64,000 bases of DNA from an uncultured Chlamydiae bacterium (GCA_963713615.1 CAVQMM010000001.1:1568001-1632000), one strand, 5' to 3'. Positions 24,771 to 50,775 are shown, counted from the stretch's first letter. The notes: a model not told the origin generated them from the sequence alone. A program made the numbers and translations.

Positions 24771-24848
24771 GTGTCCCTCCTGTGAGCGTGCGTGATTTTG
24801 AAACAAGGTTGAGCGAAATTCGTGAGCAAACAACCAAGGAGGTTGCTC

Positions 24849-25217
24849 ATGAAAGCTGCTACACTTTCGCTCGAACAAGTCGCTCAAGAATTTCATCGCG
24901 TTAGATCCCAAAAAAAGGGCCATCCACGCTTCTCCAAGGAGCTCTGGCAAGCTGCGTTCAATCTTACGATGACTTACTCTGTTGCTGAAATTGCATCTGC
25001 CATAGGCGTCTCTGTCCAGTACTTTAAGAAGCGCTTAGCGCGTGGAAAACAAACCATCCAAGATTTTGCTCAAGTACGCCCTCTACCTAGTGAATCCCAT
25101 TCATTTGTTGAAATTACTCTTAAGCACCAAGCAGGGCCTCTTACTCTTCGCTGGACTGGGCCTGTTAAGGATCTGCCTGCCCTTATTAGTAAACTCTTTA
25201 GAGGGGAGTTCTCATGA
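24849..25217 (+). CDS. tnpA: IS66 TnpA-like
   Basis: Homolog of 12349-12714. Confidence 0.8.
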   Translation: MKAATLSLEQVAQEFHRVRSQKKGHPRFSKELWQAAFNLTMTYSVAEIASAIGVSVQYFKKRLARGKQTIQDFAQVRPLPSESHSFVEITLKHQAGPLTLRWTGPVKDLPALISKLFRGEFS

Positions 25218-25570
25218 TTCAAATCACCCCTCAAATGGTTATCTATGTTGCTATTGCTCCTGTTGACTTTCGTAAAGGAATCGATGGCCTTGCATCCTGT
25301 TGTAAACAAATCTTAGGCAAAGATCCCTTTGGTGGTGCGGTTTTTCTCTTTCGAAACCGGTCTGTCAACTCTCTAAAGGTTTTAGTGTACGATGGACAGG
25401 GGTTTTGGCTCTGCATTAAACGTCTTTCAAAGGGAAGGTTTTCTTGGTGGCCTAAACCAGCAAGTGGCGGTGTTGAAGTGATTTTGGAGGCTCGTGAGCT
25501 CCAAACACTTCTGTGGAATGGAGACCCGGGTCTTGCCTGTTTTTCAGATACATGGCGAAAAATTGGATGA
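25214..25570 (+). CDS. tnpB: IS66 TnpB
   Basis: PVDFRKGIDGL motif. Confidence 0.93.
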   Translation: MIQITPQMVIYVAIAPVDFRKGIDGLASCCKQILGKDPFGGAVFLFRNRSVNSLKVLVYDGQGFWLCIKRLSKGRFSWWPKPASGGVEVILEARELQTLLWNGDPGLACFSDTWRKIG

Positions 25571-25612
25571 CAATATTGTTTTTTTATTTTCAAATAGATG
25601 CCCTGGGGATAG

Positions 25613-27225
25613 TTGAAGATGGTAAAGCGACCTAAACGCATAGATTTTACTACAGAAGAGATTGAATCCCTCATTCAGAGGATCGAGAGTCAATCCCTTG
25701 ATGTAGACGATTTTCCCTTGCTTGCCGATCTTGTGAGGGCAATGATATGGATGGAGGGATCTCTTCGAGAGCAGTCTTTGAGTATTGCAAGGCTCAAAGC
25801 TGTATTCGGAATAAAGACGGAAAGCGCACAGAAGTTAAAGAATCTACTGCGACCAAAAAAAAATGGAAGCGAGAAAGGGAAGAACACTTCTGAGGATACT
25901 TCAAACGAGAAGCCTTCTGATGCAGGTCCGGCAAAAGGGCACGGGCATCGACCAGCAAGCGATTATCAAGAAGCGCAGCTCATAAAAGTAGCCCACGAGG
26001 TCCTTAAAAAGGGCTCTACCTGTCCTGCGTGTGATAAAGGCAAATTATTCAATCTGGCTGCCGGAACGGTGCTTCGCATTGTGGGGCAACCCTGGTTAAA
26101 TGTGCATATTTACAAACCTGAAAGACTTCGCTGTCCTATTTGTCAACAGGTGTTCACCGCTAGACTACCCGAAAAGCTCTACACTGGATCAAGAATCGAT
26201 AAGTCAGCTAAGGCTATTGTCTCGATTCTTAAATATCGCGGTGGCATGCCTTTCTATCGTCAAGAGCAAATACAGACCATTTTGGGCAACCCTATTTCAG
26301 ATACGGAAATTTGGGGGATGACCCATGATGTTGCAGAGTGTATGGAGCCCGTTTTCATAGAACTTTGCCAACTCGCCGCCAACTGTGAATGCCTTCACAA
26401 CGACGATACGATGGCAAGAGTGCTTAGCCTTATGAAGGAAAACGAAGTAGCCAATCCAGAAAGGAAGGGAATATCACAACAGGCATTCTTGGAAAAGCAC
26501 ACGACCAAGAGATCGCCTTGTTTTTTACTGGAAGACAGCACGCAGGAGAAAATTTAAAAGATCTTTTAGATATGCGTGACGAGGCTCTTCCAGTACCCAT
26601 ACAAGCTTGCGATGCTCTATCAAGGAACATTCCAAAGAACCATTCCACTCAACTAGCCTATTGTAATGCCCATGCACGACGTAATTTCTATGAGATTGCA
26701 TCGCACTGGCCTAATGAGTGCGTAAATGTAGTCTCATCCTTTGACTTAGTGTTTCTGAACGACAAAATAGCAAAAAAAGAAAGACTGGCTCCTGAAGATA
26801 GACTAAAGTGGCATCAAGACAAAAGTGCTCCGATCATGAACAAAATGAGAGCCTATTGCAAAGATCTTATAGACTCCAAGCAAATAGAGCCCAATAGCAG
26901 TTTTGGGAAGGCTATTCAATATCTTGATAATCACTGGGAGGGGCTGACACTGTTCTTACGTATTCCTGGAGTTCCAGTCTCAAACAATGACAACGAGCGT
27001 CAACTCAAAAGGGCCGTACTTAACCGTAAGAACGCCTATTTTTTCAAAAATGAAACTGGAGCCAAAATTGCTGATATTCTGATGAGTGTCATCGAAACCT
27101 GCGCTCTAAATAAGATCAATCCCTATAACTATCTCATAACAATCCAAAAGAATACTGAAAGTGTTTTAGAGAATCCCAAGGCTTGGTTGCCCTGGAATTA
27201 TTCACACAACCTTGCTCCTCCTTAA
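25613..27225 (+). pseudogene. tnpC: IS66 tnpC with 1-bp deletion frameshift near 26474
   Basis: Two overlapping ORFs (25613-26557, 26518-27225) together match intact TnpC. Confidence 0.9.
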
Positions 27226-28021: not shown

Positions 28022-29074
28022 CTAGGATAACCAACCATGGTTCTTGAGACGATGGAAGGCTACTTCGACTTGCTCAAGTCTCATTAGATGCGCTTTGCGC
28101 GTATTCCAATCCTGTATTGCTTTAAATACGATCTCAAAACTCAGCGGACAATCTCCAATCTCACGCGTTGCAGCCCAGTGGACAGTTGCTAACAACTCCA
28201 TCCCTAAGGGTGTTTCAAAACCTTCAACAAGCTGTGATACCCTATCGAAACGAGCTCGCGTATCGTTATGTTCCCTTAAAAATTGCTCCGCTTCCTCCAC
28301 CGCCATTGGGTCAAGCATAATTGGAGCTTCCGGCTTATTCAAACCAGCGGCATAACCATTAATAAAATGCCCGTCCAGCCTTTCCAAAACATGGCGTAGC
28401 ACATCAGCGTAAGGGCCATAGGGGGCCTTTTCGAATTTTACCTTATTCAATTCTTCGCCCGCCTCAACCAGAAAATAGACCAACTTTTGAATTTCCAATA
28501 ACGAGATTTCATAGACAAACCCCGGAACAAGATAGCGCTTAATCAGACCGATTATTACGGCCCTTCCCACAGTCATATTGGGGCGTGTTGATAGCTTTGC
28601 AATTCTCAGGGGCTTAGGCAAACCACTTGGTTCATAAACTAACCAACGCACCTCAGGCAATTCCTCAAAAGCCAATCGCATGAGGTGTTGAACCTCCTCC
28701 CAAGACAGTCCACCTAATCCACACCCTAGTGGTGGAACTGCTACAGAACGGATACCAAGACGACGAACATCACATATCAGGGCCTGTAACCCAGTCTCGA
28801 TATCGTCAAGCCTTGACTTGCTACGCCAGTGTCGTTTTGTGGGAAAATTAATTATGTACTTTGGATTACTCAGGGAATTACAATGATGGATGAACATTCG
28901 ACCTGGCCGCACATCACCAGCTCTGCATGCGCGTCTATATGCTTTATAGTTGTCAGGGTAAGCGTTTCGAAATTGCAAAGCAACGCCCTTTCCCATAACA
29001 CCTTCTGTATTGACGGTGTTCACGAAGGCCTCCGCATCGGCGTCAAAAAGATTTCCCTGCACTAACTCGAACAT
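28022..29074 (-). CDS. darG: DarG antitoxin (macrodomain DNA ADP-ribosyl hydrolase)
   Basis: VNTVNTEGVMGKGVALQF, INFPTKRHW, PPLGCGLGGL; C-terminal LEIQKLVYF, YGPY, GMELLATVHW. Confidence 0.93.
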   Translation of the reverse strand: MFELVQGNLFDADAEAFVNTVNTEGVMGKGVALQFRNAYPDNYKAYRRACRAGDVRPGRMFIHHCNSLSNPKYIINFPTKRHWRSKSRLDDIETGLQALICDVRRLGIRSVAVPPLGCGLGGLSWEEVQHLMRLAFEELPEVRWLVYEPSGLPKPLRIAKLSTRPNMTVGRAVIIGLIKRYLVPGFVYEISLLEIQKLVYFLVEAGEELNKVKFEKAPYGPYADVLRHVLERLDGHFINGYAAGLNKPEAPIMLDPMAVEEAEQFLREHNDTRARFDRVSQLVEGFETPLGMELLATVHWAATREIGDCPLSFEIVFKAIQDWNTRKAHLMRLEQVEVAFHRLKNHGWLS

Positions 29075-29083
29075 AACTACCTT

Positions 29084-29752
29084 TCAATAATACCAGTCGC
29101 TTCTAACCTCAACCTGAGGTTGATGCATTGAAACTTGAATAATACTTTGTACTCTATCAGCCATGGCTTGATTTTTTACCACAACCCTCTCTATCGCAGT
29201 CCAGGGACATCTATTATGAACCAGGAATTCCGCCTGTCTTTTTTCTTTGGTCTCTGGGGGCTTATTCCAATATTTCAATGACATGCTGTTCCAATCCACT
29301 TCAGTGCTAAGCCCGTCCAAAGTATCAAATTGCCGTGCATATTTAAGATCTGCATGGAGATCAGTCCAAAGCCAAGCCTGTCCTGTTACCAAAATCGAGT
29401 TTACCGAACTTACGAGATGTAATATAGGCTCCTGCCCACCAGAATAATCATCGTGTCCCTTAAATAATACAAAAAGCATTACTGAACGATTGCAGAAATT
29501 AAATGGCACATAATCGCCTAATACCCCTAATTTCGAGACTGTTACTGCATGCTTTAACCGCCGTTCTTTTATATGGGCATACCCCACATTCGTATGGGGT
29601 GGCTTCCTGCTCAATCGTTCGCTATCGCACCAAAGACCCCCGTCAGCAATTATGCTGGCCAAGTTATCGATATGGGTAATGTGATAAATGGAATGCTGAG
29701 TCAAGGGTAATAGTCCTGTCGTGCCAACACGGTCCCATCGATGCGGCCCCAA
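29084..29752 (-). CDS. darT: DarT toxin (DUF4433 DNA ADP-ribosyltransferase); start uncertain
   Basis: IYHITHIDNL.SI, DYVPFNF, RSVML, KRQAEFLV, WYY; upstream of darG. Confidence 0.9.
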   Translation of the reverse strand: MGPHRWDRVGTTGLLPLTQHSIYHITHIDNLASIIADGGLWCDSERLSRKPPHTNVGYAHIKERRLKHAVTVSKLGVLGDYVPFNFCNRSVMLFVLFKGHDDYSGGQEPILHLVSSVNSILVTGQAWLWTDLHADLKYARQFDTLDGLSTEVDWNSMSLKYWNKPPETKEKRQAEFLVHNRCPWTAIERVVVKNQAMADRVQSIIQVSMHQPQVEVRSDWYY

Positions 29753-30260: not shown

Positions 30261-30498
30261 ATCTGGTGATGAAAAGTCCTGAACAATAACCAAGAAAAGA
30301 GAACATATAGCTCTCAATAGAGGAGAAGGAAAATGAATCAACTACTGGTTTTAACATGTGTAGCCATACTTCAGTTCACAGGGTTAGTGGCTGACACGAG
30401 CTGCAACAGTTTCCAGAGCATTGCAGCTCAAAATGACTTTGCAACCTACGGTGATCTTAATGAATCCAACTCGGACACCCTGCTTGCGTCGATACTAA

Positions 30499-32214
30499 CC
30501 TCATTTCCCGTGAAAATTGTAACTAGGTCTGGCCCGGCAACGCAATTTTTAGACCCTGTAAAATTTCCCTCTGTGGTTTTGTAACCTCGGTGAGGATATG
30601 GCCGTACTTACCAGAATACTTTATTTTAGTCAGTGTATCCATTTCTTGTAGAAGCTCCCGAACCGTGTATCGTTTAATAAGACCAGACTGTCTCATTTCT
30701 TTGCGCAGAGCGCTCATGTAAATAAGGGCAATGAATTGCACAAAAAGCCTGCCATCAACAGTTGCTGAACTATGCATGCGTAAGCGTTTCATATCCAACT
30801 GATTTTTCAGGTCATCAAAGCACTTTTCTACCACATCTTTGTCTCGGTAGATTTGCAAGGACTCCACCGGATCCTTAATACTATTGGTCAACAGCGCTTG
30901 GAATCCAGCATAGCGGTTGATGTACTGACTCACAGCTTGATCATTGTACGAGACTCGTATGCCTCGCTTGCGGGTGGTCTTTATCACAAAAAATGCGTCG
31001 TACGCATCTTGATGCGCGTTAATCAAATCTCCTGATTCCAGTTCCTTCTTATACCCAACCAATTCTTCAGTAAACTGATCGACGGCGGTGGCTCGTGCAT
31101 GAGCATTGTAGTAGAGGTGTAGATAGCAGCGACGCTTGTCATCCCCCCATGGGTACAGACGAGAGTGAACATATAGGATCTCATTATCAAGCTTTTGGTA
31201 TCCCTCAGGCCCATGGATCACCCCATAAATGTCATTTATAGCGAGTTGTACCCACTTGTTCTTCAGAGGGATTGATAGAGTAAATCTGTCCCTGGCAGCA
31301 AGCAGGTGATCAACATTTTTTTTGCTGTAGAACCCTTTGTCCATCACGTAGTGAAGTTTCTTTATCTCCAGAGCTTTGAAGGTCTTCAAGAGGTTGTGTA
31401 ATGTAGTCACATCGGTGATGTTGCCCGGAGTCCGTTCGAAATACACTGGCAAACGTCCCTTCTGGCCGAAGAGTATGGCAAGATTCAGCTGTGGTAACTT
31501 ATCCAGGTCGCGGTTGTGGCCGTATTTGATGTATTCATTGAGCTCAGAATATGAGGAAATAGAAGTGATGTCGTAACAGAGATAATCATCCTCTAACACT
31601 TTATTCATCCACTTGGTGAAAAAGGTTTGCTTCTTATCGATGCTAATGGCGCCAAGGATTTCGCTAATCCTCTGGCTGGTTAAGCACTCAACGGAAGGCA
31701 CATGGTTCTTGCACCATGTCCCGCAATAGCTCAGAGGCCCTCCTTGAATGGCAAGATAATAGGCCATTGCCTGAATCTGTTGGTACTCCTGAGGGAAGCA
31801 AGACCTCAACAACTGTTTCAGGCCTAACTGCTCGGTAATAGCATCGAGCACGATCGAAGGTCCCACAACTTCAGCAGATGCAGTGACCGCGGGATCTCGA
31901 ATGACTGCCTGTTCAGGTTTAAGACGCTTGGAGGGAATGAACTCTCCGGTGACTGGATCGAGCTTACCCACACACACTTGCTTATTACGAGACTGTTTTT
32001 TCTCTTTATCCCAGAATGAGGTGTATTCGTATACGTAGGTAACGCCGGTAGTCTTGTTTATATGGTTGACTCTGCATGGCATACACTATTTCCTTCCTTA
32101 AATCGTTACAATTGTAACGATGAAAAATGAAAAAATCCAGCATAAAATGTGCGCAACAGGCTTTTTTTTAGTGAATTACGACAGACCTAGTTACAATTTT
32201 CGCGGGAAATGAGG
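30499..32214 (-). mobile_element. IS1634-family element
   Basis: 33-bp IR CCTCATTTCCCG(T/C)GAAAATTGTAACTAGGTCTG; 6-bp TSD TACTAA. Confidence 0.93.
30523..32082 (-). CDS. IS1634 transposase
   Basis: YDITS, YGHNRD...LPQ, PGNITD, MDKGFYS, YRDKDVVEKCFDDLK. Confidence 0.92.
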   Translation of the reverse strand: MPCRVNHINKTTGVTYVYEYTSFWDKEKKQSRNKQVCVGKLDPVTGEFIPSKRLKPEQAVIRDPAVTASAEVVGPSIVLDAITEQLGLKQLLRSCFPQEYQQIQAMAYYLAIQGGPLSYCGTWCKNHVPSVECLTSQRISEILGAISIDKKQTFFTKWMNKVLEDDYLCYDITSISSYSELNEYIKYGHNRDLDKLPQLNLAILFGQKGRLPVYFERTPGNITDVTTLHNLLKTFKALEIKKLHYVMDKGFYSKKNVDHLLAARDRFTLSIPLKNKWVQLAINDIYGVIHGPEGYQKLDNEILYVHSRLYPWGDDKRRCYLHLYYNAHARATAVDQFTEELVGYKKELESGDLINAHQDAYDAFFVIKTTRKRGIRVSYNDQAVSQYINRYAGFQALLTNSIKDPVESLQIYRDKDVVEKCFDDLKNQLDMKRLRMHSSATVDGRLFVQFIALIYMSALRKEMRQSGLIKRYTVRELLQEMDTLTKIKYSGKYGHILTEVTKPQREILQGLKIALPGQT

Positions 32215-32336
32215 TACTAATGCAAGGATCTTCACCGCAAATGGCTCGTAGCACAGGGTGTTCTGTGAGTTGTTCAGGAGGGTGCTCAGTTAGTTGCTCA
32301 AATAGATGTTCAAACAGGTGTAAATAGCCAAGGTTT

Positions 32337-33860
32337 TTGATAATGAAGGAAGAAATATCGTGCTTGAGTCTACTTGACCGGGTAAGGTCTCTTGGTCCAT
32401 GCATGATTTTCTTCCTCCTATTAAGTAAGGGCTTTGGCAATATCTATCTTATGGCCTTGGGGGCCGCTATCCCTCTTGGTTACGGATTGGCTAATGCGAT
32501 AAAGTCTGCGTCTCATGTCCGGATTATTGGCCTCTCTTTTTGCGTCCTCATGTTGCTCATGCGGTGGCCTCTTGTTCATCTCTGGGGATATTGGGCCCTT
32601 GTAACAGCTTTATTAGGTTGGAGTAAACATAGTGCAGTTGCGGTGATCGGAAGTTTTGCAACACTCTGGCTTACTCAGGAAACGACGCTTGGCTCATGGA
32701 CTGTCATACCCTTCTTAAGTCTTGCAAGCTTTGTGGGTTTCTTTGCACTGTTGTGGTGTTTTCCACGTTCGGTGGCCCTCATCGTCGTTGGTGTTACTAT
32801 TCTGACCGGATATGAACTATATCAAATTGGTTTGACTCACCCTACCATCCAAATAGCTCAGGATTCCTCTACCGGAAAAGGGTATACTCCAGGCCCCACA
32901 CTAGCTTCAATTTTAAAAGCTAAGATTACCAAGCCCGGTATGGTTGAAGGAGATATAGGGGTCTCAAGCCTTGTCTTCGATACTGGTCCTTTCACCGCCT
33001 CTCATCAAATACTGATTGTGGAACATGACATATGCCCTGAAGAACTTAGTCATCTGATTCTACCATCGAATGCTCGCCAAAGTGAGCCCTGGTTTGAAAA
33101 CCAATTTCTGGGAAATCAATATCTACTTGAAGCCATAGCTCAAGATGGTTTTTTGGCAAGCAACCTTGGTGGCAGCTTAAAGCATACAGGTCAATTACTC
33201 CTTGCTTCGCTTGCTCATGAAAGCAATCAGTTAATCACACCTTTGGTTATTAAGAAGGGTAATAAAACATTGGTTCAAGACTCAGACCCCTTTGTCGACA
33301 GATTGGCTTGTAGACAGGAAAATGTCGTTAAAGAGATTGTCCGTGGACGTATCGAGCCTCGAGTGTTGAATCTCTCGCTACTTTTTACCGCATTTTTACC
33401 CCTCGCCTCCATCTATAATCTCATCAGGTGGTTACCAGTCATCATATTACTTCTAAACGGAGTTTGGATTCCTAAAGTAGGAGAGGTAAGGATCGTTGGA
33501 TCAATAGGATGGCCGCATGAGCCATCCAAGATCTCTGGATTAATCACCTCGCTAAATGATGCTGGTTTTAATTGGCGGCTGGGCACGTCGAAAACCAGGC
33601 TATTAGCTATCGGTGCGGGTAGATCTGCAACTCGGCAGGACGAGGAGTTGATAATTCTTGAACCAGGTGCGGTGGTAAAGATAGGTACTCATATCGTCCG
33701 AGCGGGAACCATACCGTTAGCTGTGGTGAATGGAATTTTGGATGCTCGAACTCTGGATGTTGATGGCGTAATAACGGCGACGGGCACCATCATTGATGGT
33801 GCCCTGGTTATCGCGACAGGAAGTCCCAGTAAATTAGAGTGGAAGGCACTTCTTAAATGA
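32337..33860 (+). CDS. Polytopic membrane protein with extracytoplasmic domains
   Basis: 507 aa; about 6 N-terminal TMs plus 2 internal; starts 10 bp after the Cys-peptide stop (start codon uncertain). Confidence 0.75.
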   Translation: MIMKEEISCLSLLDRVRSLGPCMIFFLLLSKGFGNIYLMALGAAIPLGYGLANAIKSASHVRIIGLSFCVLMLLMRWPLVHLWGYWALVTALLGWSKHSAVAVIGSFATLWLTQETTLGSWTVIPFLSLASFVGFFALLWCFPRSVALIVVGVTILTGYELYQIGLTHPTIQIAQDSSTGKGYTPGPTLASILKAKITKPGMVEGDIGVSSLVFDTGPFTASHQILIVEHDICPEELSHLILPSNARQSEPWFENQFLGNQYLLEAIAQDGFLASNLGGSLKHTGQLLLASLAHESNQLITPLVIKKGNKTLVQDSDPFVDRLACRQENVVKEIVRGRIEPRVLNLSLLFTAFLPLASIYNLIRWLPVIILLLNGVWIPKVGEVRIVGSIGWPHEPSKISGLITSLNDAGFNWRLGTSKTRLLAIGAGRSATRQDEELIILEPGAVVKIGTHIVRAGTIPLAVVNGILDARTLDVDGVITATGTIIDGALVIATGSPSKLEWKALLK

Positions 33861-35905
33861 ATATAGCTAGAACCCGAGGCTTTTCTGTGCGGATGATCGA
33901 AGCGGGCTTTATAATGATTAGCTGCATACTTTGCCAAGGCATGGGGCGCTATTCGGAAGCCATACTTATCTTTTCTTTGTTGACCTTAGTTTGTTTATTT
34001 CAGCCACGCCTCCGAGGGACCAGTTTTTTAGGTTTCATATCTGTTATCGGATTTGCGCTAATGACTGCTCTTGAGGGGAAATTATCAGCATTAATACCCG
34101 CGATCCTAGTCCTTGGTGCGAAACAGATTTTATTACCTGTATCCTCGGGCAATCCATATATTGCTTCCATCTGTGTGATAGGAGCCCTGTTATCGTACTT
34201 TTTGCCGGATCGAGACTGGTTGGCATGCCTGCTGAGTATCGCAGCCTGTACATTACCAACAATTAAAGCCAAAGAAGCAATCGATTCCAACAAAACCTTG
34301 ATTATATCGGGCTGTGCTGGCTGTATTATGGTTGCAGGGCTTCTCGCCTGTCATTTTACAGATAAATCAGTCAAAGTAGGTATTATAGAAGGGGGGCAGT
34401 GGGCCTCAACTCATGACCGTCTAGATTCTCTCAAAACCCTGGACCTGAGACAACTCTACGGCTACACGGAACTTTTAGAACTAGTTGAAGGGGATTCTTT
34501 ACAATTAGATAGCCCGATAGATTCTTATTCCGAACTATGGCTGATTATTCCAACTACCCCATTAACGGCAGAAAAAAAGGAACGGTTGCTAAAATGGGTG
34601 GAACGGGGCGGCCATCTTGTAATAGTAACAGATCATACCGACTTATTCGGTCATGCATCGGTCTTAAATGATTTGCTTGCAGAGACCTCTCTTCACATCG
34701 GCACAGATGCTCTCTTTCCGCAAGATCCTGCCGCGCACTCCCAAGTCACCCTGCACAGGGACATTCCACTGAAAACCGCCAATAGCGAATTTGGCTGGCT
34801 ACTATGGCCTACAATGACTGCTAGATGGATTTCGGAAGAAGTTGACTATTCATCCAAAAATTTCTTTGGTCCACAAGAAGCGACAGATAATGCATCATTT
34901 GGCCGGCATGTGATTAGTGGGGCAAAATCCTATGGAAGAGGCGTTATTACGTTGTTTGGTGATAGCACAGTCTTTGCCAATTTTGCCATTTATCAACCGG
35001 GTATCATCCCTTTTCTTGAACATCTCCGCTCACCGAAACTAATGGCACATGCATATCCCTGGATACTCCTATTTGTAGCGCTCGCTTTGGTTTGTCGACT
35101 CTGCTGGCGTCGAGATTTCCTTCTCGTAATAACCTCGGTTTTGGGGATATTAGTCATTGGAGACCTGCGGAGAGTTTCGACAAATTGGCCGGATTTCATC
35201 GTTTTTGGGGGTGAAAGCGAAAGGGTATCCGAGTGGGCAGAACCGAATACCAGCCTATCCACCGCATTCGCATTTATACCTCTATCCGGAAAGAAACCAC
35301 GCTGGTCAAATGAGCTATTATCCAAAAGCAAGGGTTGCTGGCTTTCGGCCAATGTACCACCACCATCGTCACAATGGATCTGGATTACTCCAGAAGCTGA
35401 AAACGATGAACACGTTGCTCTGCAAATGGACAGCGCTATAACAACCGCACTCGCACCACTGCTCACTGTTATAACCGAAGACAAACCACAAGCTTGGGAT
35501 ACTATCTCCTTGAAAGAGCAACCACTAAAAGTTGGCCATGTTGCAACCAATGATGCCATGGGCCAGTGGTGGTTAGACCATGGGATAAGCAATGCTAAGA
35601 AAGTCAGGATTCAAGGCTGGCTAAACCTTGTTGCAAATGGGAGTCCAAAACAAGGTACATCTTATGCATGGATCCGGGTTGGGGTTATACCACATGAATA
35701 TAAACTCCGACGAGCCGGCGAGGAGTGGCAGACGATTACTCTTCCTGAATTGTTGATAGATGGGACAGAAGGTGAGGTATATCTCGGACGTGGCGTGTCG
35801 GCAAAGGTAGTCAAAATGGAGGGCAATAAATTAGCGCTCCTAGGCACCTCCGCGCTAACCGAAGGTTGGCGCGTGGTAGACTCCTGGATTCTAATGCTGA
35901 ACTGA
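33857..35905 (+). CDS. Polytopic membrane protein with DUF4350/GATase-like domain
   Basis: 682 aa; N-terminal TMs; LLKWVERGGHLVIVTDHT and YGRGVITLFGDSTVFANF; ATGA overlap with the previous gene. Confidence 0.75.
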   Translation: MNIARTRGFSVRMIEAGFIMISCILCQGMGRYSEAILIFSLLTLVCLFQPRLRGTSFLGFISVIGFALMTALEGKLSALIPAILVLGAKQILLPVSSGNPYIASICVIGALLSYFLPDRDWLACLLSIAACTLPTIKAKEAIDSNKTLIISGCAGCIMVAGLLACHFTDKSVKVGIIEGGQWASTHDRLDSLKTLDLRQLYGYTELLELVEGDSLQLDSPIDSYSELWLIIPTTPLTAEKKERLLKWVERGGHLVIVTDHTDLFGHASVLNDLLAETSLHIGTDALFPQDPAAHSQVTLHRDIPLKTANSEFGWLLWPTMTARWISEEVDYSSKNFFGPQEATDNASFGRHVISGAKSYGRGVITLFGDSTVFANFAIYQPGIIPFLEHLRSPKLMAHAYPWILLFVALALVCRLCWRRDFLLVITSVLGILVIGDLRRVSTNWPDFIVFGGESERVSEWAEPNTSLSTAFAFIPLSGKKPRWSNELLSKSKGCWLSANVPPPSSQWIWITPEAENDEHVALQMDSAITTALAPLLTVITEDKPQAWDTISLKEQPLKVGHVATNDAMGQWWLDHGISNAKKVRIQGWLNLVANGSPKQGTSYAWIRVGVIPHEYKLRRAGEEWQTITLPELLIDGTEGEVYLGRGVSAKVVKMEGNKLALLGTSALTEGWRVVDSWILMLN

Positions 35906-36031
35906 AGGATTGATTTTTGGCATACACACCAAGCGTTCTAATCCTGCTGCGATGTCTAAGCGGAGAAATTTGCTGGCCCAAAACTCAAGACCACCAATAA
36001 CTCCAATTTTGGATCTTATACAGGACAATTG

Positions 36032-36964
36032 ATGACTATACCAGACTATCAAGAGTTGATGCTTCCTTTACTCGAACTTGTAGCCAAACGACCCAATCTA
36101 TCAAATCAAGATATGGTCGAAGAACTATGTAATCGCTTCAAGCTTACGGATGAAGAGATACGACGTCTACTCCCCTCTGGTACCCAGCGCGTGATTTTGA
36201 ATCGCATTGGATGGGCGAAGACATATCTTAAGCACGCTGGGCTAGTGAGCTCTCCAAGGAGAGGAACTATAATTCTTACAGAGCAAGGACATGAGACGCT
36301 TGCTTCCCAGCCCACACGCATTGATAGGAAATTTCTTCATCAATTCGACTCCTTCCGAGAGTTCATACGGCGTAGATCGGACGACCAAATCGCCTCGGCA
36401 ACAATGGATTATCGAGAGCCACTAGACATGGAATCTCATGAGACATTAGAAGAGTCGATGGGGCGTATCTATCAACGCTATAAAGATACCATCCTAGCGG
36501 ACCTTATGGAAAAAATCCAATCATGCTCCTTTACTTTCTTCGAGCAGCTAGTAGTCGATTTAATGCTTAAGCTGGGGTATGGGGGTGGCCACAAAGATGC
36601 AGGTTTCGCCTTAGGTAAAACCGGTGATGAAGGAATCGATGGAGTCATTAAAGAAGACCGTCTGGGCTTGGCATTAATCTACCTTCAAGCAAAACGTTGG
36701 AAAAGTTCTATCACGGTGGGACGACCGGAAATTCAAAAATTCGCTGGCGCCCTTTTGGGGAAAGCTGAAAAAGGGGTGTTTATCACAACATCAAGCTTTT
36801 CGGACGAAGCACGCCGGTTCGCGGAATCAACCTCCCATCTCAAGATTATCTTGATTGACGGAAAGTACCTATGTGAGCTGATGTGGGAGCGCGACCTTGG
36901 ATTGGAAGACGCTGGCGGCTATCGTTTCAAACGACTTAAATTGGACTACTTCTCAGAGATCTAA
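36032..36964 (+). CDS. mrr: Mrr restriction endonuclease (type IV)
   Basis: IPDYQELMLPLL, NRIGWAKTYL, FFEQLVVDL, GDEGIDG, IYLQAKRW, GVFITTSSF, LIDG. Confidence 0.95.
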   Translation: MTIPDYQELMLPLLELVAKRPNLSNQDMVEELCNRFKLTDEEIRRLLPSGTQRVILNRIGWAKTYLKHAGLVSSPRRGTIILTEQGHETLASQPTRIDRKFLHQFDSFREFIRRRSDDQIASATMDYREPLDMESHETLEESMGRIYQRYKDTILADLMEKIQSCSFTFFEQLVVDLMLKLGYGGGHKDAGFALGKTGDEGIDGVIKEDRLGLALIYLQAKRWKSSITVGRPEIQKFAGALLGKAEKGVFITTSSFSDEARRFAESTSHLKIILIDGKYLCELMWERDLGLEDAGGYRFKRLKLDYFSEI

Positions 36965-41714: not shown

Positions 41715-44700
41715 TTATCCTCCCGAACCAAATTGAATGGGCTTGTCTGCGAACCTAATTCCTAAGGCTTCTTCGAGCACCTGCTTTAAACGTCCCATTT
41801 CTTCTTTTCTTCGATGATACCATGCATAACTAGTCACTCTATAGACATGCGGGATCTCCATGCGCAGGACTTTGGGACGCCAAACTTCACGGGCTCTTGC
41901 TGTTTCTAAAATAGGGTGGCAGTGGGCATCACATTCGATGCCAATTCCAAATCGCTTTTTCTCTGGATCTTCTATTACAAAATCCAATCCAAAAGCATCG
42001 CTTTCTTTGATTGCAGATGTTTTTAGTCCAAGACTTTTGATGAAGGTAGCGACTGATCGAGTAAAACCATCTTTGTCAAAATTTGAGTTTCCCTGGGAGA
42101 CTGGATTTTCAGAAGTGATATTGTCGAGAGACTTTCTGGCTGCTCCCAAAAATCCTTCACTGAGTTTAGAGGCATAGTCGAAGTAAGCTTGAAGGTAATC
42201 TCTAGAGTTTTTAGGGCTCTGGCTCTTGGATAAAGCATCTGAGATCTCGTTGATGGGAAGGGAAGTGATCAGAATGATTTTTTCCCTCGCTCGCGTAATA
42301 GCTACATTCAAACGACGCTCTCCTCCGCCTTGGCTAAGAAGACCAAATTGTCTTCGGAATATCCCTTGCTCATCTCTTCCGAAAGTCGAGCTAAAAATGA
42401 TTACATCCCTTTCGTCTCCTTGAACGTTTTCAATGTTTTTCACAAAGAAGCTCATATCTTCCCTGTCTTGCTGACGTTCTCGTTCTTGGCTTAGAACTTG
42501 CCGGAAGGGGGCATCCTGATCGGCTCGTTCGGCTAGAACATCTTCTATCAGGTCGGCTTGCTTAGCGTTGAAGGTCACGATGCCAATGCTGGGTTTATCT
42601 GGTAAAGACCAATATTCAGCTAGTAGGTCGACGACCCTCTCGGCCTCTTCCCTATTGGTTTGGTTTGCGTAGACTCCGTCGACTCGTATTAGCTCAATAG
42701 GCCGAATATTTTGAATCACATTTTCTGGGTGTCTGACAGGAACGCTTAATCTATTGCCATAGAAAGCTGCGTTTGAAAAAGCAATCAGCTCGCGGTATTT
42801 TGAGCGATAGTGGATTTGTAGCATGGATCTTGGTAAAACGGTTTTCCCAAGAGTTAGCAAATCTGTACAATCTTTAATTTCTCTTTTGTTCCAAGTGTCT
42901 TCAAGTGCTTCCCTTTCCGCATCACTGATTATTATGTCTAGGTCTTCATCAATGGAAGTTGGCTCCTCGTCATCTTCGATTCGTTTCATGAACACGCTTG
43001 TAGGGGGCATTTGTTTCTCATCTCCGCTAATGACAGTTCGTTTAGCCCGATAGAGAGTTGGAAGAGCATTTTCTATAGGGATTTGACTTGCCTCGTCGAA
43101 AATAATCACATCAAACATTCCAGCCCTTAAAGGAAGCAGTTGGCTTGCGGTATCTGGATTCATTAGCCAGACTGGTCGGAGATGTCCTAGCCCCATATCC
43201 CATCCGCGCTCAATGACTTGCCGAAGACGACGAGCTCTTGGACCTCTTAGACGAGTGATATCTTCCCAATCTTCAGGACCCCTGATCTTCTCTATATCTA
43301 TATTGTAAGCCAAGAACTTCTGGTTCAATTTTCTCATGTGAGTAGTTGATTCGTCGAGAGTTTGGATTTTCCGTGAGAGCTCTTTTTGAGAAAGACGCAA
43401 GATTGGGAAGTTCTGCTCGATTCGGTCTTTCCAGGCAAGTCGGGCTTCACGAGCAATAATTCTTCGAATCACTTCTTCAAGTTCTTCTGCAGGATATTCC
43501 CTCAATTCTTTATCTTTTTCCCGGAGAACGGCCAAAATCTTTAAGACCTCCAGAGAAAGATTTGGTGCTTCCAGGCGGAATTCTTGATAGGCAGAGAGGG
43601 ATGGGAGTGCTTCAACTAAGAGGTGGAGATCATGAAAACTAGACTGATTATTATGAATATTTGCTTGGCAAAGTTCAAACAACTTTTCAGAGAAAAATGG
43701 AACTAGCCGGTCTAAAGCCTTGATGCTCTGTAGTCTAGATTGATGGCGCGCAAAGGCTTTTTCATACCGAGAGATAAGATCTTGGTACGCGCGTACACCC
43801 ATTTGGGTTATCGGCTCGACTTCTTCTTGGCGAGGGCAGGCATGAAGGGCATGGATACCTTCTTGTGCTAAGCGTAGCTCCTCTATCATACGATCGGCCT
43901 TCAAACGCAACTCCTTCAAAAATAAGGGAGTGGACGTATGCCTGTCGGCGTAAAGCAGATTAGAAAATTCTAAAAGCTTCTCTCGGATCGGTCTTTGTTG
44001 CAGTTCGAGTTTAGCAGCATCCTGAAGTTGTAAAATATGCTGCATCCTTGTGCAATTCATCTCGCGTAAGGGATGAAGACAAAGCTCTTGGTGGGTTAGG
44101 CGCAAAGACAGTAATTGCTGGATTCGCTTACAATTTATATTGTACGAAGAATTAATACGATATTTTTGGTAAGCCGAGAAGGATGGTAGCGCTTGATATA
44201 ATTGTTGAAGCTCGTCAAAATTCAATCTATTATTTCGAATATTAGCGTAACATCGCTCAAATAGTGCTTCGGAGAAAAATGCAGAAAGGCTCTTTAAAAT
44301 ATCGATACTCTGACTTCTAGCTTGCTGGCGCTCAAAGGCTTTTTGGTATCGAAAGATCAGATCGTGATATGCGAGTTTACCTGTTTTGGCTATTGGCTCG
44401 ATTTCTTCTTGGCGAGGGCAGGCATGAAGGGCTTGCACACCTCTTTGTGCTAGGTGCAGATCCTCTATCATACGATCAGCCATCAAGCGCAACTCCTTCA
44501 AAAATAAGGGAGTGGACGTATGCCTGTCGGCGTAAAGCAGATTAGAAAATTCTAAAAGCTTCTCTCGGATCGGTCTTTGTTGCAGTTCGAGTTTAGCAGC
44601 ATCCTGAAGTTGTAAAATATGCTGCATCCTTGTGCAATTCATCTCGCGTAAGGGATGAAGACAAAGCTCTTGGTGGGTTAGGCGCAAAGACAGTAATTGC

Positions 44701-47700
44701 TGGATTCGCTTGCAATTTATATTGTACGAAGAATTAATACGATATTTTTGGTAAGCCGAGAAGGATGGTAGCGCTTGATATAATTGTTGAAGCTCGTCAA
44801 AATTCAATCTATTATTTCGAATATTAGCGTAACATCGCTCAAATAGTGCTTCGGAGAAAAATGCAGAAAGGCTCTTTAAAATATCGATACTCTGACTTCT
44901 AGCTTGCTGGCGCTCAAAGGCTTTTTGGTATCGAAAGATCAGATCGTGATATGCGAGTTTACCTGTTTTGGCTATTGGCTCGATTTCTTCTTGGCGAGGG
45001 CAGGCATGAAGGGCTTGCACACCTCTTTGTGCTAGGTGCAGATCCTCTATCATACGATCAGCCATCAAGCGCAACTCTTTTAAAAATAAAAATGTCGACA
45101 TTTGTTTTTCATGATAAAGCTGGCTGTAAAGTTCTAAAATTGTCTCACGGATTGGTCGTTGCTCCAACTCCAGTTTGACTGCATTTTGAAGTTGTACAAT
45201 CCTTTCCTGAGTTGGTTTTTCGTTACAATTTCTCAAGAGGCTTTGAATCCGTCTGTAGTTTACATACCGTAAAGGATTGAGGCGACCAATTAAGGAAACT
45301 GATGAAGTAGCACTCTTAGCCCATGAGAGCCATTTTTCTACGGTCAAAATAGGCAATTGAATCAATTGGGCAGATAGCTGAGAGTCATGATCTTTTAAAT
45401 CTAAATCGCTTAATGACGCTTTGAGTAATTCAAGCTGCCGAATTAGATCACGACCTTTTGGCTCTCCATCTGCAGGAAATAGGTGAAACCAAGATGAAAT
45501 ATTTTTCCAGTCTACTTTACTAAAGAGAGGCTCATGTGATGTGATCCACTCTTGATGAGGAGATGGGTCATCTATTTCGAAAGATGTGGTCGAAGGCGTG
45601 ATAGACTCTTCTCGTCTTTTTTCTTTATCAATGAATGCAAAAAGAAGGCTGGCGAATTCATTGACTAAAGGAGAGTCAGGGGAGAAGACTTTGAGTTTTT
45701 CTAATGGATTTCTTTCAAAAAAAGAGGATTCAAGCCAGATTCCAACCATCGAAGATCGGATTTTTTCAATTGCCTTGATTTGTTTTTGATGGCCTAAGTA
45801 GGCAACCGATACGATGCCTGTCTTAGCCCATGAGAGCCATTTTTCTACGGTCAAAATAGGCAATTGAATCAATTGGGCAGATAGCTGAGAGTCATGATCT
45901 TTTAAATCTAAATCGCTTAATGACGCTTTGAGTAATTCAAGCTGCTGAATTAGATCACGACCTTTTGGCTCTCCATCTGCAGGAAATAGGTGAAACCAAG
46001 ATGAAATATTTTTCCAGTCTACTTTACTAAAGAGAGGCTCATGTGATGTGATCCACTCTTGATGAGGAGATGGGTCATCTATTTCGAAAGATGTGGTCGA
46101 AGGCGTGATAGACTCTTCTCGTCTTTTTTCTTTATCAATGAATGCAAAAAGAAGGCTGGCGAATTCATTGACTAAAGGAGAGTCAGGGGAGAAGACTTTG
46201 AGTTTTTCTAATGGATTTCTTTCAAAAAAAGAGGATTCAAGCCAGATTCCAACCATCGAAGATCGGATTTTTTCAATTGCCTTGATTTGTTTTTGATGGC
46301 CTAAGTAGGCAACCGATACGATGCCTGTCTTAGCCCATGAGAGCCATTTTTCTACGGTCAAAATAGGCAATTGAATCAATTGGGCAGATAGCTGAGAGTC
46401 ATGATCTTTTAAATCTAAACCGCTTAATGACGCTTTGAGTAATTCAAGCTGCTGAATTAGATCACGACCTTTTGGCTCTCCATCTGCAGGAAATAGGTGA
46501 AACCAAGATGAAATATTTTTCCAGTCTACTTTATTAAAGAGAGACTCATATGATTTGATCCATTTTTGATGAGGAGATGGATCTTCTACATCGAAAGATG
46601 CCATTGACTGTCGGATGGATTCATCTCGCCATTTTTCTTTATCAATGAATGCAAAAAGAGAACTGACAAATTCATTGACTAATGCAGAATCAGGAGAGAA
46701 CAGTTTGAGCTTTTCTAATGGATTTCCTTCAAAAGAGGACTGCAACCAAGTTCTGGCGATCGGAGCACAGGTTTCTTCAATTACTGTAAGCCGTTTTTGA
46801 TCGAGGTCTTTTAATACTCTTCGTAGAACAGGCACATCAATCAATTTGATTTCTTGATCTTCTAGATCGATTAATTGACCTAAGAGGATTCGATAGCTTA
46901 GTCCCGTTGTTTGGTCAGTTGTGTGAATCGCTGCATGGTGCTTATCGATTTCCCTTTCTAAGTTTTCGATTTTTTCAGCCAGCTCTTCGCGTTTAAGTCC
47001 TACATTTTCCGCACTGTAGGCGCTGATAGCTTGTACAATCCCTTCGATTTGAGATCTCAGATTTTCTAGGACAGAGGCACGATCTTTATTTACGTGCGTT
47101 ATATAGAAATAACGATTCTTAAGCCCTTCTGCATCGAGTCTTTTTGCCAGGACTTCTAGAGCTGCAGACTTTTGGCAGACAACGAGTACTGTCTGATTGC
47201 GACCGATGCAGTCCGCAATGATATTTACAATCGTTTGGCTTTTCCCCGTTCCTGGAGGCCCTTCAATGAGCAGGCCTGGAGTTTGTCGTGCGCGAAAAAC
47301 GGCTTTCTCTTGAGAAGGGTCACTCTCCATTGTGAAGAAACGATCTTTTTCAGGAATCGAAGGAAGGGCGGGGGAAGCGAAAGGCTCTCTGTTCACGCGG
47401 AGTGCCATTTCTAGTCCCGTTCCATTTACGGACTTTTTCCTCATTTGGCGCAAATCTTCTCCTATGGCCTGACCCATAAATTCAGCATGGAAGAGAACGG
47501 CAGAGCAAACCACTTGCCTACTTCCTGCCTTAACTGTGTAGTCATTATCTGGCAGAGCACATAGAGACCTTTCTCTTGGATCTGCTAGGGATCCGAAAGC
47601 ATCGATCACGTCTCCGATATGAATCGTAGACCTTCCTAATAGCTCTTTAGCAGTTTCTGCACATCGTTTCGCTTCTTCAGTACCAATCAGTCCCATAAGA

Positions 47701-50123: not shown

Positions 50124-50775
50124 AAGGCCCCTCCTTTTTTGAGCGCTCATCTTGTGTAGTTATGGCAACGTGACCTTCCTTAGCTAAGATCGTTTTTAGG
50201 CGTCGCATGTCATCACGCCTAGGAATCCCAGCGAGCCATATAGCTCCTTCTTCTTCAAACATAATATCAAAGGTCTTGTCCGATGGCTTAAGAGTGCGTT
50301 CAAATTGACGGAATCGCGTTTCTCCGAGAGGGGTAAGGCAATGAAGACGTTGATTATCACTGCCACGCAGGGCAAGTGTTTGGGAATCACTTTCTTCGTA
50401 AGGGTCTGAAATAAGAGCGTCTATTGTTCCTTTGCACTGATTAACTAAAGGAGCAATCTTCTCAAAAGGATGTCCACTATAAACCAGAATATCCTTAGTG
50501 ATTTTAGAGCGAATCTGAGCAAGGAGATTAATCAACGCTTCAGATTGATCAAAAGGTTCCCCACCAGAAATAGTAATTCCATCCGCCTCGTCCAGCCAAG
50601 GATCGATAACGGCCATGATTTCATTAATTGAAACACCACCCCTTCCAGTTCCCCACGTATCGGCTGATACACATCCCTTGCAACGAATAGAACATCCTTG
50701 AAACCAGATGCCAATACGGCGACCTGGTCCCAGGGTCGTTACTGGGAAGTGGATTCTAGAAAGGTAAAGGATCAT
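50104..50775 (-). CDS. Radical SAM / 4Fe-4S protein, NrdG-activase-like
   Basis: LGPGRRIGIWFQGCSIRCKGC (CxxxCxxC), ITISGGEPFDQ, VYSG, LRGSDNQR. Confidence 0.9.
   Translation of the reverse strand: MILYLSRIHFPVTTLGPGRRIGIWFQGCSIRCKGCVSADTWGTGRGGVSINEIMAVIDPWLDEADGITISGGEPFDQSEALINLLAQIRSKITKDILVYSGHPFEKIAPLVNQCKGTIDALISDPYEESDSQTLALRGSDNQRLHCLTPLGETRFRQFERTLKPSDKTFDIMFEEEGAIWLAGIPRRDDMRRLKTILAKEGHVAITTQDERSKKEGPYDNPCS

Follow-up and report, generated by a model that had tools for sequence, protein, structure and literature searches.

An insertion sequence in the genome of an uncultured Chlamydiae bacterium interrupts the gene of a small cysteine-repeat peptide precursor, and intact homologs of this gene (P) lie next to the genes of two membrane proteins, here called A and B, in several other lineages. 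We analyzed the cassette within a 64,000-nt stretch of that genome, referred to below as the window. We think it probable that A and B form a dedicated peptide-maturation system that works outside the membrane and carries out a chemistry on each Ser/Cys unit of the precursor. As a three-family system, P-A-B matches nothing named; the mechanism outlined below is a proposal. All ribosomal peptide maturases of which we know act in the cytoplasm. If this reading is right, a leader-guided membrane machine that works on exported peptides would extend the known sites and means of peptide modification, and the bacterial GIFT/DUF4350 domains found in A and B would gain a defined client. The cassette is compact and easy to express, with three genes in less than 4 kb and a precursor of about 100 residues with identical units.

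The interrupting element (30499..32214, 1716 nt, minus strand) has 33-nt terminal inverted repeats with one mismatch and lies between two copies of a target-site duplication, TACTAA, at 30493..30498 and 32215..32220 on the plus strand. Its 519-aa transposase (30523..32082, minus strand) matches PF01609 and scores 286 bits against NF033559 (cut-off 100), which together with the inverted repeats and the 6-nt duplication places the element in the IS1634 family. Nine copies are present in the genome, 100% identical and each flanked by its own duplication of 6–7 nt, so the insertion is recent. In four peat and soil sequencing runs coverage barely reached past the element and showed no empty-site joint.

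The earlier note had predicted a hidden 90-aa reading frame at this site. When 30499-32214 and one TACTAA were excised by script, 273 nt remained, comprising 90 codons and a stop, in agreement with that prediction. A ribosome-binding site, GAGGAG, stands ahead of the gene at 30320..30325 (plus strand, as are all parts of the gene). In the 5' part (30333..30498), which scores 23.7 bits against the leader profile, a predicted Sec signal covers about residues 1-20 and is followed by the start of a conserved leader. From sequence and profile, the 3' part (32221..32327) encodes the end of the leader, a conserved Arg (32247-32249), a core of six Ser-x-x-Cys units (32250..32321) and the stop. The six cysteines noted before do lie at four-residue spacing, at positions 69, 73, 77, 81, 85 and 89; two further cysteines, at 9 and 24, had gone uncounted. 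A profile of the leader alone scores both halves of the gene, which puts the junction inside the conserved leader. Because the element parts signal and leader from the core, this copy of the peptide gene is probably inactive, and we regard it as probably a fresh pseudogene beside intact A and B. The window thus offers an example of an insertion sequence that hides a precursor gene from gene callers. At 32211-32327, an ATG at 32220 is in frame with the core and has, five bases ahead of it, a GAGG contributed by the end of the element; translation from this start could yield a 35-aa peptide devoid of the signal and of most of the leader. The promoter scan behind a promoter-like site at 32120-32148 was at chance level (11 versus 10.5).

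The rejoined frame is the sole run of at least four (S/T)xxC units in all six frames of the 3.97-Mb genome. Against a profile of 23 intact homologs it scored 69.8 bits over nearly its whole length, compared with 22.9 for the interrupted frame, and an intact database protein of 89 aa (P0096) aligned with it end to end at 42% identity. Leaderless CSxG runs do occur in viral contigs, where the leader, A or B accompanied them in 0 of 65 such loci, and they could suggest that our frame too is an artefact, either a chance frame or the antisense of another repeat. Serine is encoded by both TCN and AGY codons and cysteine by both of its codons, a mixture that indicates selection on the protein frame, and the antisense frames of many repeats contain stops. 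Together with synteny in 46 loci and full-length intact homologs that carry both signal and leader, this makes the artefact reading next to impossible, and we rejected it on the strength of the intact homologs. The viral runs themselves (L058-L122) are common and resemble antisense readings of 12-nt repeats; a search by motif alone would therefore mislead.

A profile search for precursors returned 147, of which 120 were listed and analyzed; 119 of these contained a run of units. Their register is nearly invariant. Among 829 units in the 119 precursors, a Ser or Thr stands three residues before the Cys in 828 and a Gly directly before it in 745. The first Cys has its Ser/Thr at -3 in 118 of 119 precursors, with an Arg ahead in 102, while a Ser/Thr comes after the last Cys in just 15, so that the core opens with Ser after the Arg and closes on Cys. 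A hydroxyl residue that consistently precedes the Cys and rarely follows the last one defines the unit as (S/T)-x-G-C, one hydroxyl per thiol; the unit had earlier been written as C-S-x-x, with the serine on the wrong side. Intact precursors have 4–11 cysteines at four-residue spacing. The count is odd in 46 of 119 and even in 73, and the number of units differs by one between close strains. Odd counts and gain or loss of single units suggest that the units act singly; the even majority leaves room for disulfides.

What had been called an acidic linker is the conserved leader, with the motif F-S-S-P-A-A-x-x-S-F/Y-x-x-S-G-D and the boundary Arg about 25 residues further on; some of the weaker precursor matches have a leader of a second type. 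The proposed export-type N-terminus, still a prediction, agrees with hydropathy and with the homologs. By Sec-type heuristics, 109 of 112 precursors have an N-terminal Lys/Arg and 97% a hydrophobic stretch scoring above 2; among those scanned there were no Tat motifs and one lipobox-like match. By these heuristics the family shares with the precursors of bufferins and other MNIO-modified peptides a Sec signal on a Cys-containing chain. Since the leader is conserved behind the signal, it would exit the cytoplasm together with the core. Leader identity followed the identity of A and B weakly across 20 loci (Mantel r 0.27 and 0.22), and shared ancestry explains part of this. In one gut clade (L030, 7616-8452), the precursor extends past the core, first through a low-complexity stretch and then through two small domains of the form H...C..C..C. 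This domain also occurs as a separate gene (L023, 12445-12789) and at the end of a nuclease (L049, 9520-10491), and it had no Pfam match at E 1e-8.

Searches with an alignment of B recovered 55 loci, 10 in genomes and 45 in metagenomes. An intact precursor was present in 46 of them, and the remaining nine contigs begin inside A or B; the suggestion that a Cys-repeat peptide should be sought beside homologs of 32337-35905 was thus borne out. A was present in 53 of the 55; wherever a gene is missing, the contig breaks off within A or B. The genes are arranged P-A-B or, in nine loci, A-B-P. When 627 ORFs from the loci were clustered, only P, A and B were common across lineages, with no fourth shared gene. 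The gene is real and conserved, as first claimed, and no genes other than those of A and B accompany it constantly. In five of five genomes there was a single precursor, located at the cassette. Identity between B proteins was below 60% in 20 of 23 compared loci, and many gut loci were nearly identical.

In the window, A (507 aa; 32337..33860, plus strand) and B (682 aa; 33857..35905, plus strand) are encoded by genes that overlap by 4 nt. Each is predicted to have seven transmembrane (TM) segments, a first outward domain of the GIFT type (residues ~165-340 in A, where it is degenerate; ~169-395 in B, GIFT/DUF4350), a TM hairpin and a second outward domain. Alternation of Lys/Arg-rich loops predicts that both soluble domains of each protein lie outside. 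AlphaFold models had a pLDDT of 91.8 for A and 88.7 for B, and in these both proteins have the GATase-like GIFT fold. The B domain matched IFT52N with a VIA Z of 19.1 (rmsd 2.8, 193 aligned residues), the site-1 protease GIFT domain with Z 17.8 and OST48 with Z 15.5; A matched IFT52N with a VIA Z of 10.1 (rmsd 3.9, 167 aligned). B matches PF14258 at 36.5 bits (cut-off 30.4), A has no Pfam or NCBIfam match, and NCBIfam names none of the three families. In the ESM Atlas the top match was an unnamed 60-member cluster, followed by GldG/DUF4350 at under 0.9, and Foldseek with A returned nothing at E 0.001. The TM bundles and second outward domains gave no informative fold match, GIFT matches having filled the lists. 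A and B aligned to each other with a probability of 86.5 (53.8 with a smaller alignment), which makes them likely paralogs.

All strongly conserved polar residues of A and B fall in the predicted outward domains. In B these are D259, H260, T261, H266, E327, D369, S370 and T371, and in A they are H228, D268, N274, D313, S314, D315 and H392. They include an acid-His pair (D259-H260 in B, with the full motif in 84 of 93 sequences; E/D-H in 28 of 31 sequences of A) and a D-S-T/D-S-D motif. GIFT domains commonly carry a D-S-T/D motif behind their last strand, so part of this conservation may be structural. The best Cys column reached a conservation of only 0.32 in A and 0.22 in B. With no conserved Cys, the two proteins are not classic amidotransferases or thiol-disulfide oxidoreductases; the Cys nucleophile of the Cys-His-Glu triad of class I glutamine amidotransferases is absent from both. 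To our knowledge, the closest folds (IFT52, the site-1 protease GIFT domain, OST48/Wbp1 and GH42 domain B) are non-catalytic, and we know of no catalytic precedent among GIFT folds. A and B share the fold of their first outward domain with the GIFT proteins IFT52, GldG, OST48/Wbp1 and the C-terminal domain of site-1 protease, and with DUF4350. Unlike these, they combine it with seven TM segments and a hairpin, occur as paired paralogs with a family-specific D-H-T motif and a dedicated peptide gene, and have neither an ABC ATPase nor a permease as partner. One Akkermansia B is named 'Gldg family protein' in RefSeq; a GldG/ABC accessory system was rejected on a TIGR03521 score of 13 bits against a cut-off of 390 and the absence of shared ABC genes from the loci.

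A leader that outlasts the signal, the Arg boundary, the strict pairing of Ser with Cys, the outward polar residues and the lack of cytoplasmic enzymes at the loci all point to maturation after export by A and B. The precursor, made up of signal, conserved leader, Arg and 4–11 Ser-x-Gly-Cys units, would leave the cytoplasm through Sec. The outward GIFT domains of the A/B pair are predicted to bind it by its leader, and beyond the membrane the pair would act chemically on every Ser/Cys unit. A cut behind the Arg would free the core. Co-folding of the intact peptide of one other locus (L003) with the outward parts of its own A and B scored 0.43, with 0.01 for the best control, in a range (0.60 or below) that in our calibration held 18 of 157 solved complexes and both of the passing mismatches (2 of 215). 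The runs had at least 46% of contacts in common, and partner pLDDT was 44–48. This model lends weak support to binding of the precursor by A and B.

Which chemistry the pair might perform is a more tentative matter. The spacing S-x-G-C is that of nisin ring B, and by this analogy with the register of lanthionine rings, a Ser-to-Cys thioether staple of the lanthionine type within each unit is our first guess and the chemistry that we think likeliest, although taken by itself it is less probable than not. Other per-unit chemistry, for example transfer of a lipid-derived group onto Ser combined with disulfide ladders, takes up the remainder of the maturation reading. Lanthipeptides (LanB/C, LanM, LanKC and LanL systems) likewise have a leader and a core with Ser/Thr N-terminal to each Cys, and the ring-forming spacing is found here in the 828 of 829 units. 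The cassette departs from them in its predicted Sec export and outward domains, and in that both A and B lack a dehydratase, kinase or Zn-cyclase domain as well as a conserved Cys. Known lanthionine synthesis requires ATP/GTP or glutamyl-tRNA, together with a Zn-Cys cyclase; neither is available to, or was seen for, A and B, and this counts against the thioether. The main weakness of this guess is that we know of no mechanism by which Ser could be activated outside the cytoplasm. Our literature search found no precedent for ThuA-fold lyases. Pfam and NCBIfam searches of A, B and their neighbors matched no Lan enzyme (LanB/LanC, LanM, LanKC or LanL); a genome-wide search matched a LanC-type enzyme in 0 of 5 genomes, though its control matched in none either.

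A profile search of 1.84 billion representative sequences recovered about 95 B-type proteins and, beyond them, a family of ~800-900-aa double-GIFT proteins, which we call the sister branch. These share with B the motifs D-H-T, D-Y-S..F-F and D-S-T and align to it by hhalign at probabilities of 100 and 99.4. They occur in 23 of 301 genomes from the phylum of one carrier (G062, itself counted) and form a tandem paralog pair in 19 of 20 fetched regions. With a fixed filter, an exported protein with Cys and Thr/Ser repeats was found near the pair in 11 of 28 loci and in none of 20 control windows taken from these genomes; in the other 17 loci, several of which are short contigs, the filter found no such client. 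In nine of the 11 clients, Ser/Thr keeps one fixed offset from the Cys at 74–97% of cysteines, even where the Cys spacing itself varies. The offset differs between clients (-1, -2, -4 or +1/-5, and +1 alone in L175). Thr beside Cys in these clients fits a disulfide solenoid as well as it fits a staple. A leader tag with the pattern S-P-L-Y-x-x-T-L / S-P-A-A-x-x-S-F was matched in 6 of 28 sister loci and in none of the 20 controls; of the compact precursors, 44 of 120 matched. The pattern was composed to fit both branches, so the shared tag counts as suggestive. In L172, L174 and L187, three of these six cases, the tagged protein is an exported TPR protein encoded ahead of the pair, with only three cysteines.

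On a broader and still more tentative view, A and B would represent a new enzyme class that forms Ser/Thr-Cys thioether staples beyond the membrane and uses no ATP, tRNA or Zn-Cys cyclase, with the S-x-G-C cassette as its minimal member and the larger branch acting likewise on long repeat proteins. The TM part of the sister proteins aligned to exosortases with hhalign probabilities of only 2.2 and 0.4 (three exosortases were compared) and did not match PF09721. Three sister clients (L171, L177, L180) have a predicted C-terminal membrane anchor, and in L177 and L180 a Cys recurs at every sixth residue, which recalls insect antifreeze solenoids. At L219 9566-11074, in a genome of the same order (G857), a 502-aa protein has two GIFT domains and the D-H-T motif; its ORF holds no TM bundle, and it has no Cys-rich client.

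The peptide might instead be an unmodified, metallothionein-like metal binder of the envelope, for which A and B would serve as receptor, loader or unloader. The free number and parity of the cysteines suit such a role, and the His/Asp clusters of A and B could be metal ligands. GIFT folds are, moreover, mostly binding modules. We nevertheless judge this explanation unlikely, for it leaves unexplained the near-absolute Ser at Cys-3, the Thr/Ser offsets of the sister clients and the leader that ends in Arg, and the neighboring genes share no metal transporter, metal regulator or oxidoreductase. Exported Cys-rich peptides that bind metal do exist, namely the bufferins (PMC11626156).

The bufferins also bear on where the modification takes place. 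The earlier note had set the export signal against known ribosomally synthesized, modified peptides as cytoplasmic products, a contrast that the bufferins weaken: they carry a Sec signal, and MNIO enzymes modify them (PMC11626156), so that cytoplasmic modification is still compatible with the presence of an export signal. Bufferins and oxazolins (MNIO + DUF2063) are the nearest described Sec-exported Cys peptides, likewise with a short operon and a membrane gene. The present cassette differs from them in the absence of MNIO/DUF2063, in a ~45-residue leader that stays after signal removal and in its two GIFT membrane partners.

The peptide might be modified in the cytoplasm before Sec export by a radical SAM, MNIO or lanthipeptide enzyme from another locus, as bufferins are by MNIO enzymes (PMC11626156); A and B would then only export, anchor or protect it. 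This genome has 14 radical SAM matches and one MNIO locus, one other cassette (L005) has a radical SAM gene 3.3 kb downstream, and the peptide tail weakly matches TIGR04117 and TIGR04114. These last matches reached 14.4 of 20 bits and 15.2 of 50 bits, respectively, and all tested precursors fell below the cut-offs. SPASM had no match in this genome (the control matched 8 of 14), the MNIO locus, at a distance of 1.57 Mb, has a partner gene of its own and, upstream, an ORF that contains Cys, and four of the five other carriers, which are incomplete metagenome-assembled genomes, had no MNIO match. The 66 flanking proteins scanned included that one radical SAM enzyme and no MNIO, YcaO or Lan enzyme. 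As the cassette is patchy across phyla, a suitable host enzyme would be needed in each, and we consider this explanation distinctly improbable. The CXXX-repeat radical SAM system (TIGR04114, TIGR04117), whose maturase we take to be TIGR04115, likewise has a small precursor with a C-terminal Cys at every fourth residue; our cassette differs in having no radical SAM/SPASM gene, a constant Ser at Cys-3 and another leader. At the MNIO locus of this genome (C1, 3172729-3176446), the MNIO gene and its downstream partner follow a 442-aa, signal-bearing ORF containing Gly and Cys, possibly a large bufferin-like precursor. Our literature search, whose coverage took in few subscription papers and no supplements, found no description of the P-A-B cassette.

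Named hosts of the cassette belong to the Verrucomicrobiota, Planctomycetota, Bacteroidota and Bdellovibrionota, and include Verrucomicrobia, Akkermansia, Kiritimatiellia, Phycisphaerae, Bacteroidaceae and Bacteriovoracaceae; intact cassettes are present in gut Akkermansia. The gene content of the window's own host resembles that of an environmental chlamydia. B was not found in the 60 relatives searched, and among 401 genomes of its own phylum the window's genome alone gave a full match, alongside one weak, different GIFT protein. In two further phyla, B was found in 1 of 301 genomes (phylum of G070), and B or a sister protein in 2 of 301 (phylum of G061). Plasmids gave no match to B or the sister protein, and viral contigs contained one true, complete cassette, on a 76-kb IMG/VR contig (L057).

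In the window, the cassette lies between a darTG pair (28022-29752) upstream and an Mrr-type nuclease (36029-36964) downstream, and this setting, with its rarity in the phylum, suggests island cargo. The same setting could be taken to mean that the three genes serve in defence or sensing at the envelope, phage being one conceivable target, in which case the peptide would act as decoy or trigger. A helicase with defence-type matches lies nearby, and other loci are close to integrases, a restriction-modification pair, an antitoxin or a KAP NTPase. PADLOC, however, matched neither A, B nor an intact precursor, housekeeping genes are the neighbors at other loci, and residence on an island is expected of any mobile cargo; we regard this explanation as very improbable, although a defence role would be compatible with maturation by A and B as its downstream outcome. 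Further out in the window, 24822-27225 holds what we take to be an IS66-type element with its transposase split over two frames (25613-26557 and 26518-27225). The helicase region (41715-50150) encodes a 2811-aa kinase-like and helicase protein with internal duplications, whose best PADLOC match is PDC-S37, with Hhe and MkoA also matched. In four other loci, a DNA/RNA non-specific endonuclease follows the cassette (L006 13924-14742, L028, L039 4188-4993 and L049 9520-10491), an assignment that Pfam confirmed for L006 and L049.
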